Source: a virus
Reading direction: 5' to 3' (one strand)
Length of the DNA: 13,404 nt
Virus genome (UHGV): UHGV-0358253
Shown: piece by piece, positions 138 through 6,156 of the stretch
How positions within the stretch are numbered: the stretch's first letter is position 1
Layout: every line of letters starts with the position of its first letter
Position numbers and translations under genes: made by a program
Notes under the pieces: model-generated
The model's input: only the letters and a program-made list of their open reading frames with translations
The model's database searches: none
What the model was told of the DNA's origin: nothing

Positions 138-398
138 ATGTTTTCGAACTTTTTCATGGTTTCCTCAGCTGACTTATATGTTCTGCTATATAGCGAGTCT
201 CAGAAGTGTTTTCATATTGAGACTGTTTCCGCAATGATTGATAAAAATGTTCGCATGTACCTTGAGGGGCGAAGCGGCGATTATGTCACCATTGGTATTG
301 GTTCTTCCGTAGAAGAGCTTCGCGAGATAAGGGGCAAACTTGTTGAGATGCGTCATGGTGTTGCTGCTCCTCACTTTTTGGTTGCTCCGGAGGAGTAA
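138..398 (+). CDS. Hypothetical 86-aa protein, convergent with and overlapping the 3' end of the 286-789 gene
   Basis: ORF with GGAG 7 nt upstream of ATG (127-130); no recognisable motif; overlaps the C-terminal tail of the minus-strand HTH gene by 113 nt, so it may be a shadow ORF. Confidence 0.3.
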   Translation: MFSNFFMVSSADLYVLLYSESQKCFHIETVSAMIDKNVRMYLEGRSGDYVTIGIGSSVEELREIRGKLVEMRHGVAAPHFLVAPEE

Positions 399-789
399 CC
401 TCACCAGTTAACAGCCACATCGGATCGCAGCCAAGAATATTTGCCAGTGGGATAAGCATACTGATAGTTGGTTCATACTCTCCGCTCTCCCACTGGATGA
501 TAATTTCTTCATCGAGATCGAGCAGCCTGGCGAGTTCGGCGGTTGTTAAGCCGCAGGCTTCGCGTTGGGTGCGAAGACGGGTGTTGATTGCAGAATTTTT
601 GTTCTGTAAAAGCATTGCTGACGATAGCTTTCTGGATATGCTATTTGTCATATCCCATGCCAGTCCTGCGCATGACTCTATATCGCTAGAGAGCGTAGCA
701 TCAGGTGTTGCTTTTGCTATTAGTGTAATGAGGCTGCCGAGGTTTTTCAGTTCTTCGAGACAGTCAAGAGTTGTAGCTTTATTGATCAT
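286..789 (-). CDS. XRE-family helix-turn-helix protein with unassigned ~65-aa N-terminal domain and low-complexity C-terminal tail
   Basis: 167-aa ORF; central segment LRTQREACGLTTAELARLLDLDEEIIIQWESGEYEPTISMLIPLANILGCDPMWLL fits an XRE/Cro-C1-type HTH; GAGG 9 nt upstream of the ATG; same strand as and downstream of cI, followed by the terminator at 34-69. Confidence 0.65.
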   Translation of the reverse strand: MINKATTLDCLEELKNLGSLITLIAKATPDATLSSDIESCAGLAWDMTNSISRKLSSAMLLQNKNSAINTRLRTQREACGLTTAELARLLDLDEEIIIQWESGEYEPTISMLIPLANILGCDPMWLLTGEVTPPEQPKSEEQQHHDASQQVCPLSREALLRKNQYQW

Positions 790-820
790 GAGATGATACC
801 TCAGTTACGAACTTTGTTTT

Positions 821-873
821 ATGGTAACTAAGGTATCAAGGTGTGGCAAGTGATTTTTGATACTTTGGTTTCT
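821..873 (-). promoter_or_regulatory. pL-like leftward promoter with two operator-like TTGATAC sites between cI and the downstream HTH gene
   Basis: On the - strand TTGCCA (849-844), 17-nt spacer, TACCAT (826-821); TTGATAC-containing sites at 824-839 (- orientation, overlapping the spacer and -10) and 857-873 (upstream of -35) match the repeat family found upstream of cI. Confidence 0.4.
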
Positions 874-892
874 TTTTGTGTTTTGTGTCTGG

Positions 893-1549
893 TCAGAAAA
901 TATCCCACCTGGCATCAACCACAACACCTACTATTTCGCAATCATTGTCCATTTCTATGATTGGATATTGTGGATTAAGGGGCTTTAGAAACGCCTTTCC
1001 CATGTCAGAAATATATTTTTTGAATGTTGCTTCATTGGTAGATTTTTTTCTGGCGATGACGTAACACCCTGAAAAAACTTCTTTATCTGGGTTGACAAGG
1101 ATCGACATTCCTTCAGGAAATGTTATTCCTACGGGCGAAGTCATTGAGTCTCCGTGCACTTCCAGCCAGAACCCCCTCTCACCAGCGTATTTTACAGAAT
1201 GCCTCCAATTATCCTGATCATACATGTTGTAGTCATCACCAGAAGTTGCGAATAATCCTGCCTGAACCCAGTTAATTACAGGGTAAGAGTGTGCTGTGTC
1301 TCTCTGTGGGCAGCTCTTAACATTATTTTCCCAATGCTTATCTTTTTCATCTCCGTTCTGAAGCCACTGCGGTGAACACCGCAGTGCAGCTGCAACTTTA
1401 AAAAGGGTGTCACCGTTGAAACTTTTTGTAAGGCCTTGCTCGGCTTTACTGATTGCAACTCTGGTGATCCCAGCTTTTTTAGCCAACGCATCTTGTGTTA
1501 ACCCAGCTTTTTGCCGTGCGTTGATGAGACGTTCACCTAAAGACTTCAT
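893..1549 (-). CDS. cI: Phage CI-type repressor: N-terminal HTH plus C-terminal S24 (LexA-like) autopeptidase domain
   Basis: C-terminal half is recognisably lambda-cI-like (FWLEVHGDSM with the Ser nucleophile, ATFKKYI...FLKPLNPQYPIIE, YPVINWVQAG hinge); N-terminal HTH resembles P22 C2/434 repressor. Start placed at ATG 1549 with GGAGAAGAAAA SD rather than the ORF-track start at 1624, which lacks an RBS and would run into the operator region. Confidence 0.9.
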   Translation of the reverse strand: MKSLGERLINARQKAGLTQDALAKKAGITRVAISKAEQGLTKSFNGDTLFKVAAALRCSPQWLQNGDEKDKHWENNVKSCPQRDTAHSYPVINWVQAGLFATSGDDYNMYDQDNWRHSVKYAGERGFWLEVHGDSMTSPVGITFPEGMSILVNPDKEVFSGCYVIARKKSTNEATFKKYISDMGKAFLKPLNPQYPIIEMDNDCEIVGVVVDARWDIF

Positions 1550-1558
1550 TTTTCTTCT

Positions 1559-1643
1559 CCTCTCATGGCTGTTGATACTAAAGTAACAGAATTTCTTGAT
1601 ACTTTGGGTTCCTGTGGTTAACATCGTTGAATAACAAAGTATC
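1559..1643. promoter_or_regulatory. Divergent OR-like region: rightward promoter plus three operator-like repeats
   Basis: TTGATA (1596-1601), 17-nt spacer, TAACAT (1619-1624) on +; TTGATAC-family sites at 1572-1589, 1596-1612 and inverted at 1628-1643; CTGTT...AACAG inverted repeat at 1569-1589. Confidence 0.5.
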
Positions 1644-1660
1644 TGGTGTGAGACTAAAGA

Positions 1661-1888
1661 ATGACCCTTTATGAAATATTAAAAATTCAATTTAAAACCA
1701 ATGCCGCTATTGGTCGCAGGTTCCCAAAGAAAGGAAGGCCTCGTGGCAGTCAAGGTGTTGGAAAGTGGAAAACGCGAGGTGTTCCGGAGGATGTTGCCAT
1801 TCTTTGTCATCTGGATCCGAGCATTCCATATACACACCCAAGTCTAGCGAATACAGAAGATGACAAGCCCACAGGAGACCAACAATGA
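1661..1888 (+). CDS. Hypothetical basic 75-aa protein at the Cro position
   Basis: ORF whose stop overlaps the next gene's start (ATGA at 1885-1888); weak RBS; G/P/R/K-rich with no clear HTH, so it may be an untranslated leader instead. Confidence 0.35.
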   Translation: MTLYEILKIQFKTNAAIGRRFPKKGRPRGSQGVGKWKTRGVPEDVAILCHLDPSIPYTHPSLANTEDDKPTGDQQ

Positions 1889-2592
1889 ACACCGCAATTT
1901 TTAACGGCAAAGCATCCATGACCAGCGTTGAGATCGCAGAGCTGGTGGGAAGCCGACCAGATAGTGTTAAGAGAACTATTGAAACACTGGCTAAAAAGGG
2001 AATCATCCAATTTCCACAGACTGTGGAAATTGAGAATAAACAATCACTTGGGCCTCGCCGATTTTCTAGCGCGTATGTATTCGAAGGTGAACGAGGTAAG
2101 CGCGACAGCATCATTGTCGTCGCACAGCTCTGTCCTGAATTCACATCTCGCCTGGTAGATCGCTGGCGCGAACTGGAAGAACAGATCCGTAAGCCAATGA
2201 GCGAAATCGAAATGGTTGCCGCGATGGCTCTTGAAGCCGTTCGCCAACAGAAACGGATCACTCAGGTGGAAGAAAAAGTCAGCCACGTTGCTGAAACAGT
2301 CGAGCAAATTAAAAAGGGCACTATTCGTGAGGGCTATGCCGGATATCGCCAACTGAAAGCAAAAACCGGTTTGTCAGATGATAAATGCCGCAATCTGGTG
2401 AACGCCTATCAAATTCCTACAGACACCCATGAGTTCATGACGCCGGACGGATTGTTGTCACGTCGCGCAATTGTTGCTGTGGAACCGTTTATGGCTGCTT
2501 TTTATCGGGTTATGGAGGAAGCAGAACCGCGAGGGACTCGCTGGTATCACCCGAAAATGGGGTTATTTCAGGTTATTGGTTGGCAGCGGTGA
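1885..2592 (+). CDS. Phage regulatory DNA-binding protein, Rha/ORF6N-like N-terminal domain (antirepressor-like)
   Basis: 235-aa ORF with AGGAGA SD 6 nt upstream; N-terminus MTSVEIAELVGSRPDSVKRTIETL follows the T-S-x-E-I-A-E-L-x-G-x-R-x-D-x-V pattern of Rha-type phage regulators. Confidence 0.8.
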   Translation: MNTAIFNGKASMTSVEIAELVGSRPDSVKRTIETLAKKGIIQFPQTVEIENKQSLGPRRFSSAYVFEGERGKRDSIIVVAQLCPEFTSRLVDRWRELEEQIRKPMSEIEMVAAMALEAVRQQKRITQVEEKVSHVAETVEQIKKGTIREGYAGYRQLKAKTGLSDDKCRNLVNAYQIPTDTHEFMTPDGLLSRRAIVAVEPFMAAFYRVMEEAEPRGTRWYHPKMGLFQVIGWQR

Positions 2593-2997: not shown

Positions 2998-3549
2998 ATG
3001 GCAACCACCCCTACCCAAACTCACCCTAAAATTGATGTTATCCATGGGAAGGCTGTTACCTCTTCTTTGGCCGTTGCCGAATATTTCTGCAAGCAGCACA
3101 AAAACGTTATTCAAAAAATCCAGACGCTTGAGTGCTCTGTTGAATTCACTGAGCTGAATTTTCAGCCCAGTGATTACACCGATTGCACAGGCCGCAAACT
3201 ACCTTGCTATCAAATCACCCGCGATGGCTTCGCGTTCCTTGCTATGGGCTTTACTGGCAAACGTGCAGCCCGGTTCAAAGAGGAATACATCAACGCCTTT
3301 AACCAGATGGAGAAGAATTTATCTGGTGCTGACGCGGTTGATATGTCAGCTGTCGCACGAAACGCCAGAGGCGTATACCTGCATTTGCGTGAAATCCATC
3401 AAATCTGGACAAGCCAGCTTTATCCAATGCTTAAGGCCGTTGAATCTCCGCTGGCTAGCAAACTGTACGACCGTGTTGGTGATGCTGTTTTTGGCGCTGC
3501 ACTTGTTGATTCCAGGCTGAATGGTTCTGACAAGGAGGTTCGCCCATGA
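2998..3549 (+). CDS. rha: Phage regulatory protein Rha family
   Basis: AVTSSLAVAEYFCKQHKNVIQKIQTL...ELNFQPSDY...YQITRDGFAFLAMGFTGKRAARFKEEYINAFNQME matches the conserved Rha core; start moved to ATG 2998 (GAGGA SD) because the upstream 2701 extension has no RBS and contains the terminator at 2812-2834. Confidence 0.85.
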   Translation: MATTPTQTHPKIDVIHGKAVTSSLAVAEYFCKQHKNVIQKIQTLECSVEFTELNFQPSDYTDCTGRKLPCYQITRDGFAFLAMGFTGKRAARFKEEYINAFNQMEKNLSGADAVDMSAVARNARGVYLHLREIHQIWTSQLYPMLKAVESPLASKLYDRVGDAVFGAALVDSRLNGSDKEVRP

Positions 3550-3740
3550 TTAGTTACGAAATCATCATCTCCACTACGGAATACAGAAACGATGTATCAG
3601 TTCGCACGGATGTATCTGTCTGGCACCGTCGCTATAAATCCAGAAAAACAGCGGAACTGAAAGCGGCAGAGATGTGTGAAACCATCTCAATGAAAGGTAG
3701 CCCGGTTAAATACGTAACTACGGCGGAGGTGCGTCCATGA
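3546..3740 (+). CDS. Hypothetical small phage protein (64 aa)
   Basis: AAGGAGG SD 7 nt upstream; ATGA overlap with the Rha stop. Confidence 0.55.
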   Translation: MISYEIIISTTEYRNDVSVRTDVSVWHRRYKSRKTAELKAAEMCETISMKGSPVKYVTTAEVRP

Positions 3741-4257: not shown

Positions 4258-5246
4258 GCCGTTACGCCCCCACACCGGAAGTTATGGCTATTGGTCAAAT
4301 TAATATTTCCGGCAATGTTACACCTGCGAACTGGTGGAAATATATTCGACTACCCAGTGGGCGTCCGGATGCGACGGCTATCGCTCTGCTTTCAGAGATC
4401 GTTTACTGGTACCGCCCGACAGAGGTCAGGGATGAGCACACCGGAGCGTTGCTGGGATATCGCAAGCGTTTTCAGGGCGACAAACTGCAAAGAAGCTACC
4501 AGGCGTTTGCTGAGCAGTTTGGTTTCGGGAAAAGGGAAACCGCAGATGCGCTGAAGCGTCTGCGCGATGCAGGGTTTATTACTCTGGATTTACGCACGGT
4601 GGAAATGCTCGATGGGGTGAAATGCAGCAATATTTTGTTTGTCGGGATCAACCCACAGGCAATTGCGGCCATCACCACACCTTCTTCTGTTTCGCCAGAA
4701 AGTAACAGCAATAATGCAATCAGCGATACAGCTATTACGTTAAAACGGAACACCCCCCGACGTCATAACGGAACAGGGGATACGCCGAATGTTGATACAA
4801 ATACAGAGATTACTACAGAGATTACAACGGAGACTAAAAACACTATTGATGCGTCCGCTGACGCGTCTGCGCCAGCGCGTTCTGCCCGACAGGAATATTC
4901 ACCGGAATTTGAACAGGCCTGGCAGGAATATCCCAAACGTGCTGGTGGCAATTCCAAGTCAGCAGCCTTCAAAGCCTGGAAAGCCCGTATCAGGGAGGGA
5001 ATAAAACCGGAGACCATGCTTGATGGCGTGAAGCGGTATGCCGCTTGGGTACGTGCTACAGGAAATACCGGCACACAGTTCGTGAAGCAGGCTGCGACGT
5101 TCTTTGGACCCGATCGTCACTTCGAAGATTACTGGCAACAGCCAGCCGCTCACGGAGGTGGGCGACAGCGACAGGTCGATGTCCTGGCTGGCCTGGGAGC
5201 CATGTCTGACAAATTCGGTAAATCCAGTAACAAATTGACATTCTGA
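4254..5246 (+). CDS. Phage replication initiator / replisome organizer (at the lambda O position)
   Basis: 330-aa ORF with AAGGAGG SD; sits directly before the DnaC-like and DnaB-like genes; N-terminal putative DNA-binding domain, Thr/Glu- and Asp/Ala-rich linker, conserved-looking C-terminal domain (EFEQAWQEYPKR...FEDYWQQ). Confidence 0.8.
   Translation: MSRYAPTPEVMAIGQINISGNVTPANWWKYIRLPSGRPDATAIALLSEIVYWYRPTEVRDEHTGALLGYRKRFQGDKLQRSYQAFAEQFGFGKRETADALKRLRDAGFITLDLRTVEMLDGVKCSNILFVGINPQAIAAITTPSSVSPESNSNNAISDTAITLKRNTPRRHNGTGDTPNVDTNTEITTEITTETKNTIDASADASAPARSARQEYSPEFEQAWQEYPKRAGGNSKSAAFKAWKARIREGIKPETMLDGVKRYAAWVRATGNTGTQFVKQAATFFGPDRHFEDYWQQPAAHGGGRQRQVDVLAGLGAMSDKFGKSSNKLTF
4802..4883 (+). 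repeat. Tandem and near-tandem short repeats inside the replication initiator gene (possible origin iterons)
   Basis: Perfect tandem 12-mer TACAGAGATTAC at 4802-4813 and 4814-4825, followed by GCGTCCGC / GCGTCTGC near-repeats around a GACGCGTC palindrome; this is the linker region of the initiator, where lambda carries ori. Confidence 0.3.
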
Positions 5247-5247
5247 G

Positions 5248-6156
5248 GTGACAGCGATGATGACGATTGACCAACGTGAGAAACAAACAAGACTACAGGC
5301 GCGAATGGATGAGTTACGGGCAGAAATGGATGAGTTACGGGCAGAGATTGCATTTGCTCAGAAGGGCGAAAAGCCATGGCCTTATCGTTCCTGCCTGATG
5401 CGTGAAGGTCGCGGATATTGCGAAAAACACGGTAAATATCGTACGCATATACTGGTGTGGATCGATCGTAATGGCGAGGACAGAGAAAAAATTTCATGCT
5501 GCCCTGACTGCTTGATCGCTGAGGCCAGTGATTTGACCATGGAACTGTCGTCCCTCAAGGCGGAAGAACTGACTGATAACGCCGGAATTGCTCTGCGTTT
5601 TCGGGACTGCGAGTTTGATAATTATCTGGAGGTTAATCCTGACGCAGCCAGAAATCTTGCGGCCTGTCGCCGCTATGCGGAGAACTGGCCAGATATGCTG
5701 GAGAACGGTACCAGTCTTGTTATGACCGGCAGTTGCGGTACCGGGAAAAATCATCTGGCGGTATCAATGGCAAAACACATCATCCGTAACTATCTGGCCA
5801 GTGTGGAGATCACCGACGTGATGCGCCTTACCCGGGCTGTGAAAAACTGCTGGCGGAATGACAGTGAAAAAACAGCGGATGACGTCATTGAGCATTATGC
5901 GTCACTGGATTTGCTGATTGTCGACGAAGTCGGCGTTCAGTTTGGCAGTGCGGCTGAAATGGCCATTTTGCAGGAAATTATCAATGCCCGGTATGAGGGT
6001 ATTTTGCCAACTATCCTGATCAGCAACCTTTCACCGGAAGAATTGTGGGCGTTCATCAGTCCCCGGATTGCCGACAGAATCACCGATGGCGGGCGCAACT
6101 GGTTGTCGTTTAACTGGCCCAGCTACCGTTCTCGTATCGGAGGTGTTGCCGCATGA
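5248..6156 (+). CDS. DnaC-family helicase loader (AAA+ ATPase) with N-terminal Cys-rich zinc-ribbon-like segment
   Basis: Walker A GSCGTGKNHLA (DnaC-type GTGKNHLA), Walker B LLIVDEVG; GAGGTGA SD; upstream CxxC/CCPDC cysteines. Confidence 0.9.
   Translation: MTAMMTIDQREKQTRLQARMDELRAEMDELRAEIAFAQKGEKPWPYRSCLMREGRGYCEKHGKYRTHILVWIDRNGEDREKISCCPDCLIAEASDLTMELSSLKAEELTDNAGIALRFRDCEFDNYLEVNPDAARNLAACRRYAENWPDMLENGTSLVMTGSCGTGKNHLAVSMAKHIIRNYLASVEITDVMRLTRAVKNCWRNDSEKTADDVIEHYASLDLLIVDEVGVQFGSAAEMAILQEIINARYEGILPTILISNLSPEELWAFISPRIADRITDGGRNWLSFNWPSYRSRIGGVAA

Follow-up and report, generated by a model that had tools for sequence, protein, structure and literature searches.

The window, as we call the whole 13.4-kb stretch of DNA that was analyzed, is the early region of a lambdoid prophage. 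From left to right, it carries a gene for an HTH_3 protein of 167 aa (286-789, minus strand; phrog_4739), the cI repressor gene (893-1549, minus strand; 218 aa, with HTH_3 and Peptidase_S24 domains), and a gene in the cro position (1661-1888, plus strand; 75 aa), to the right of which lie two Rha/antirepressor-like genes. The segment from 1 to ~8200 matches the prophage that adjoins mlrA in E. coli strain N32, with a single mismatch at 5671; beyond ~8200 the two sequences diverge, with many mismatches from 8210 on, which points to a possible mosaic junction in the replication/late-regulatory region. The immunity region (780-1670) was found in 195 of 5,426 complete E. coli genomes, in one copy each and on the chromosome every time. 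Over positions 250-1950 the identity to phage phiP27 is 95.5%, and that to a set of Stx1a- and Stx2a-converting phages is ~86%; phiP27 itself, an Stx2e phage, has this type of cI, as do several Stx1a-/Stx2a-converting phages. It should be noted that phiP27 (L001 among our loci) has an extra minus-strand gene, P27p13 (3000-3671, 672 bp), between the cro-like and Rha-like genes, which is not present in the window (compare position 1888).

The start of the window is contained in an IS4 element, the terminal inverted repeat of which (TAATGCCGATCAGTTAAGG, in the minus-strand reading) ends at 118. It is followed by a 12-bp target duplication, ATCAACATGGAG, at 119-130, and the same 12-mer is found at the other end of IS4 in N32. 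The insertion lies ~160 bp downstream of the 286-789 gene, the first gene of the leftward (pL) operon, so that the operon is interrupted there. An 86-aa ORF on the plus strand (138-398) matches phrog_6104 (E 5e-49); it runs toward the HTH gene and overlaps its 3' end by 113 bp; in strain N32, RefSeq annotates the HTH gene and not the 86-aa ORF. Within the HTH gene, the stretch ~420-575 (query 172-324 of the search with window 250-1950) is 92-94% identical to DNA of otherwise unrelated Stx2a phages and of phi467, where the matching DNA lies under a DicA-type regulator. This suggests a mosaic junction.

Both domains of CI are readily recognized (HTH_3, E 1.7e-14; Peptidase_S24, E 3.2e-22), and the N-terminal domain matches 434 Cro (E 1.2e-9, the best match among solved structures) and P22 C2 (E 1.7e-9), as the preliminary description of this DNA had proposed. 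The C-terminal domain aligns with that of lambda CI (chain 2ho0; E 4e-31, with ~50% identity by eye), and Ala97-Gly98, Ser135 and Lys177 align to lambda Ala111-Gly112, Ser149 and Lys192. The N-terminal HTH, the S24 domain, the Ala-Gly site and the Ser/Lys dyad together mark the protein as a predicted self-cleaving repressor of the LexA/CI type. The N-terminal domain is rare: it was found at an identity of at least 90% in 11 of 50,697 phage records (phiP27 and Stx1a/Stx2a phages), and in all other matching phage records its identity was below 60%.

The protein encoded at the cro position is a member of phrog_4749, an orphan PHROG family of unknown function; the family is small and consists of hypothetical proteins, and its named members are from Enterobacterales. 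No Pfam match was obtained for the 75-aa protein, and a Foldseek search of viral models returned only a non-significant match of the YdaS type. Its AlphaFold model (pLDDT 84.6) has a predicted fold closest to all-alpha Cro proteins, and with moderate confidence we regard the protein as a divergent Cro. Between its two putative HTH helices there is a conserved basic stretch of nine residues, FPKKGRPRG, in which P22, G25 and R28 are invariant in 34 homologues and the pLDDT of the model exceeds 90; the turn between the helices of an HTH usually has 3-4 residues.

Short repeats on both sides of cI are in clear excess over chance. The heptamer TTGATAC occurs seven times in the window compared to 1.54 expected, a number reached in 0 of 200 shuffles, and four of the copies are located in the two intergenic regions that flank cI (833-839 on the minus strand, 857-863, 1572-1578 and 1596-1602). 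The remaining copies, at 4792, 5761 and 12017, score at most 4.7 bits as full sites and were therefore treated as chance occurrences. The full motif, GATACNNNNGTATC, allowing up to two mismatches, has 12 matches in the window against 3.6 expected, six of which fall inside the two intergenic regions, 214 bp together. We also constructed a weight matrix from relatives alone, with the window and phiP27 excluded, and scored both strands of the 13.4 kb. The six intergenic sites are the top six of the window; five of them have scores of 17.5-24.7 bits, whereas the maximum in 200 random sequences was 17.9 bits.

One may ask if such recurrence is a by-product of AT-rich intergenic DNA and promoter hexamers, with no repressor involved. 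Both intergenic regions have a G+C content of 36%, and the TTGATA at 1596-1601 coincides with the -35 hexamer of the predicted rightward promoter. However, this is the single copy of TTGATA placed as a -35 element, and local dinucleotide shuffles of both regions, which preserve composition, yielded 0.057 sites on average and at most 2 in any of 20,000 shuffles, versus 6 observed. Base composition would also not account for the inverted-repeat form of the sites, their constant spacing or their association with the recognition helix of CI, all described below. Because of the shuffles and the helix link, this explanation is effectively refuted, and we assign it a negligible probability.

The six putative operators are placed three on each side of cI (795-872 and 1574-1643), in close association with two predicted promoters. 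These promoters, pL and pR, are predictions of a consensus scan that are conserved in position in diverged relatives, and they lie where they had been placed previously. On the left, pL (821-849, minus strand; TTGCCA-17-TACCAT) would drive the 286-789 gene; sequences read at the same position in other loci are TTGACA-17-TACATT (L112) and TTGCAC-17-TACCTT (L084). On the right, pR (1596-1624, plus strand; TTGATA-17-TAACAT) would drive the cro-like gene, and a promoter of the form TTGATA-17/18-TAnnnT is found at the same offset from the OR3 site in 8 of 8 lineages.

Among the leftward sites, the putative operator OLc (859-872, GATAC TTTG GTTTC) has the highest score of the window, 24.7 bits; it starts 10 bp upstream of the -35 hexamer of pL, and 20 bp separate its end from the stop codon of cI. 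OLb (824-837, GTAAC TAAG GTATC; 22.9 bits) fills the spacer of pL, overlapping the first 3 nt of the -10 hexamer, and is kept in every examined lineage that has an OL. The third candidate, OLa (795-808, GATAC CTCA GTTAC; 17.5 bits), occupies about +6 to +19 of the predicted pL transcript, within the leader that precedes the 286-789 gene, and the Shine-Dalgarno sequence of this gene falls at the center of the site. It was missed in the preliminary description, which counted five sites in total and two on the leftward side; OLa is conserved in relatives (phiP27, L002, L003 and L069), and the window has three OL sites. The Phytobacter (L084) and Raoultella (L085) loci have two OL sites only, with no equivalent of OLa. 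In these two loci, a G+C-rich hairpin followed by a T run is located between the cI stop codon and OL; there is no such hairpin in the window.

On the rightward side, the putative operator nearest to the cI start is OR3 (1574-1587, GATAC TAAA GTAAC; 21.7 bits), 9-22 bp upstream of the -35 hexamer of pR. OR3 probably overlaps pRM, a promoter for which there is no conserved candidate: relaxed scoring of -35 and -10 elements in 8 lineages detected no conserved sigma-70-like promoter on the cI strand, and the one candidate that recurred, GTATCA-16-TAGTAT, has 7 of 12 matching positions and is present in some lineages only. OR2 (1598-1611, GATAC TTTG GGTTC; 21.7 bits) reaches from the -35 hexamer of pR into the spacer; its sequence, TTGATACTTTGG, is near-invariant in 8 aligned lineages, the sole change being A for G in L069. 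An alternative register with five spacer nucleotides at OR2 (TTGATAC TTTGG GTTCC) was rejected, since G10 and C14 are invariant across relatives only with four.

The weakest of the putative sites is OR1 (1630-1643, AATAA CAAA GTATC), which covers the predicted start of transcription from pR. Its score, 9.7 bits, is at the level expected by chance, and we accepted the site on the basis of its conserved position, 32 bp from OR2 in 8 lineages. The five sites listed originally were described as sharing TTGATAC; four of them contain it exactly, and the fifth (1628-1643), which corresponds to OR1, has GATAC on the minus strand only. We considered whether TTGAATAAC (1628-1636) could be a TTGATAC that has gained one base, and rejected this because relatives align with GATAA or GATAC-N4-GTATC at 1630-1643. 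At position 1630 the window has A (TTGAATAAC), whereas most relatives have G (TTGGATAAC); the A allele is found in 7 of 66 close IMG/VR relatives. This G-to-A change falls at a half-site position occupied by G in nearly all other sites, and it may weaken the binding of the repressor or Cro at the pR start.

As judged from aligned sites, the unit of recognition is a 14-bp imperfect inverted repeat, GATAC-N4-GTATC. For this comparison we used a non-redundant set of 40 sites, all from lineages with the same recognition helix in CI. In the better half of the site, G1, A2, A4 and C5 are invariant in all 40, a conservation that is inflated by orienting the sites by this half; the pattern of the other half is independent of the choice of orientation, and there G10 (35/40), T11 (31/40) and C14 (38/40) are the reverse complement of C5, A4 and G1. 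The spacer, given earlier as a variable 4-5 nt, is a fixed N4, with which G10 and C14 are near-invariant. When the right half is reverse-complemented, its base frequencies track those of the left half (r = 0.82); compared in the direct orientation, the two halves show no correlation (r = -0.07), in disagreement with the earlier impression that the sites resemble direct repeats. Perfect palindromes were found in two relatives, namely, GATACTTAAGTATC at OR1 of the Stx2a phage L002 and GATACTAAAGTATC at OLc of L069. The asymmetry had been considered unusual for a dimeric CI; in lambdoid operators, however, a consensus-like half-site paired with a degenerate one is normal.

Direct repeats, or single TTGATAC half-sites, read by a non-symmetric assembly of the repressor would account for the invariance of the TTGATAC half next to a half that is always degenerate, for the low number of perfect dyads (2 of the 40 sites) and for the TT flank that is conserved on one side only. 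This model is highly improbable. The degenerate half retains G10, T11 and C14 at the frequencies given above, the correlation in the direct-repeat register is absent, the fixed N4 spacing is the geometry of P22, and the nearest relatives with solved structures, 434 Cro and P22 C2, bind DNA as symmetric dimers.

The arrangement of the sites is conserved along with their sequence. Measured between site starts, the distances from OR3 to OR2 and from OR2 to OR1 are 24 and 32 bp in 8 of 8 lineages in which the identity of CI ranges from 100% to 56%; in a ninth lineage, from Yersinia (52% CI identity), the spacings are 24 and 35 bp, so that the OR3-OR2 distance is fixed at 24 bp in nine lineages. 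The mean frequency of the most common base is 0.917 in half-site columns compared to 0.623 in the remaining intergenic columns (ungapped; Mann-Whitney p = 5.5e-9, a value that overstates independence, as the lineages are interrelated). The degenerate halves are conserved as well, each in its own form: OR3 always has GTA[A/G]C, and OR2 has G[G/A]TTC in eight aligned lineages. Site-specific conservation of this kind suggests that graded operator affinities may be under selection.

Given these sites, the question is which protein binds them, and a comparison of loci fetched by CI homology is informative. A site was defined as at least 8 of 10 matches, and upstream sites were counted within 150 bp of cI. 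All of the 70 loci with the helix [IV]TRVAISKAE[QL]G have the motif, with 3.0 sites upstream of cI (OR) and 2.0-3.0 downstream (OL). About 90 loci with other helices (P22-like SNVAISQWERS, etc.) have approximately zero sites, and, as a positive control, P22-type loci show TTAAG-N4-CTTAA at the corresponding places. Thus, relatives with the same helix keep the motif and those with other helices do not have it; the loss of the motif in phages with the same repressor, named beforehand as the finding that would speak against an operator function, was not seen. A further locus is that of Serratia sp. Ag1 (L071 and L087, which are the same sequence). Its CI is 51% identical to that of the window and has the helix SRMAISKIEMG, and its half-sites, TAAAC or GTAAC-N4-GTTTA(C), occupy the same positions as the sites of the window. 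The Cro-like protein of this locus is 69% identical to that of the window despite the changes in the CI helix and the half-site, which makes the locus a candidate for a natural specificity switch.

The sites could also be real and belong to another regulator, either the Cro-like 75-aa protein alone, with some other target for CI, or the HTH protein encoded at 286-789. Every motif-bearing locus and lineage also has the gene in the cro position, such that sequence comparison does not distinguish binding by CI, by the Cro-like protein or by both, and the 286-789 product carries an HTH_3 domain. We rejected the latter as the motif binder because L084, L086 and L112 have no homologue of it and the motif persists there; its gene is a target of the switch. 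Against both proteins, the motif tracks the recognition helix of CI, and in L071 the half-site and the CI helix change together next to a Cro-like protein that is still similar. Furthermore, inspection by eye of the two intergenic regions reveals no other repeated dyad that CI could use. Binding by another regulator is therefore very unlikely.

In our view, the six sites are very probably the OL and OR operators of a lambda-type immunity switch in a phiP27-type prophage. The layout of a heteroimmune repressor proposed in the preliminary description is thereby upheld, inasmuch as the sites track the CI recognition helix and overlap both predicted promoters. From these comparisons we infer the following scheme. 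A CI dimer would place one helix-turn-helix on each half of the 14-bp pseudo-dyad, and the near-perfect half (TTGATAC) together with the site-specific degenerate half of each site would confer graded affinities and, presumably, an order of occupancy. Bound at OR2, on the -35 hexamer of pR, and at OR1, on the pR start, CI would turn off the cro-like gene and the rightward early operon; bound at OLb, over the spacer and the -10 hexamer of pL, with the aid of OLc and OLa, it would turn off the leftward operon. OR3, which adjoins the cI start, would most likely serve in autoregulation of cI. Cooperative binding between neighboring sites would be expected from the lambda-like C-terminal domain, which may also support looping between OL and OR across ~770 bp. 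In the SOS response, RecA-stimulated self-cleavage at Ala97-Gly98 would lift repression, and the 75-aa Cro-like protein would be expected to act afterwards at the same sites.

The predicted switch shares its main features with that of lambda. In both, three sites are found on each side of cI, over divergent early promoters; each operator combines a consensus-like and a degenerate half-site; and the C-terminal domains of CI are clearly homologous and have in common the Ala-Gly cleavage site and the Ser/Lys dyad. The OR3-OR2 distance of 24 bp is also lambda-like, as neighboring operators of lambda are 23-24 bp apart. There are, however, a number of differences: the core of the site is the 14-bp GATAC-N4-GTATC in place of 17-bp sites of the TATCACCGC type; CI has an N-terminal domain of the 434/P22 type and not of the lambda type; OR1, 32 bp away from OR2, is located at the start of pR transcription; ~770 bp separate OL from OR, compared to ~2.3 kb in lambda; the first gene of pL encodes an HTH protein and not N; and Cro comes from an orphan family.

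The similarity to P22 includes the match of the N-terminal domain to C2, the VAIS core that is common to the two recognition helices, and the 5-4-5 geometry of two 5-bp half-sites with 4 bp between them: the P22-type loci L072 and L079 carry TTAAG-N4-CTTAA sites whose placement with respect to the repressor gene is the same. The half-site itself is different (GATAC versus TTAAG), sites of the P22 type are more symmetric, and the N-terminal domains are only ~42% identical. With 434 the prophage shares the best solved match to its CI N-terminal domain, 434 Cro, and a 14-bp operator dyad. The 434 operators are of the form ACAA-N6-TTGT, however, i.e., 4-6-4 as opposed to 5-4-5, with another sequence, and the Cro of this prophage is not a homologue of 434 Cro. 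Among Shiga-toxin phages, the operators of 933W and H-19B have the same functional role. Phage 933W has three OR sites and two OL sites only, and H-19B has four OR sites (PMC8065619). The window has three of each, and the repressors of those two phages are of other immunity types.

A more far-reaching possibility is that the switch is wired unlike those of lambda, P22 and 434, in ways conserved within this family. The invariant TTGATAC half paired with a conserved site-specific half, the position of OR1 at the start of transcription, with 32 bp (three helical turns) between it and OR2 and 24 bp between OR3 and OR2, the OL-OR distance of ~770 bp and the orphan Cro are the observations that led us to consider it. 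The FPKKGRPRG insertion of the Cro-like protein might recognize the four A/T-rich base pairs at the center of the site by way of the minor groove. We consider such wiring unlikely; if it were real, CI and Cro would discriminate between the sites in a manner unseen in the classical phages.

The literature that we searched, the scope of which did not extend to the phiP27 genome paper (Recktenwald and Schmidt 2002), contains no description of the phiP27 operators or of this motif. The operator sequence GATAC-N4-GTATC and the layout of three plus three sites are thus defined here for an immunity type with no description in that literature. Judging by its sequence features, this is a new immunity specificity, common to phiP27 and some Stx1a/Stx2a phages; the kind of system to which it belongs is well known, and conceptually it is a routine lambdoid switch. 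In Stx phages, spontaneous induction and the release of toxin are commonly considered to be influenced by the interaction of CI with its operators. The six predicted sites are therefore concrete targets for footprinting, reporter fusions and predictions of superinfection immunity.
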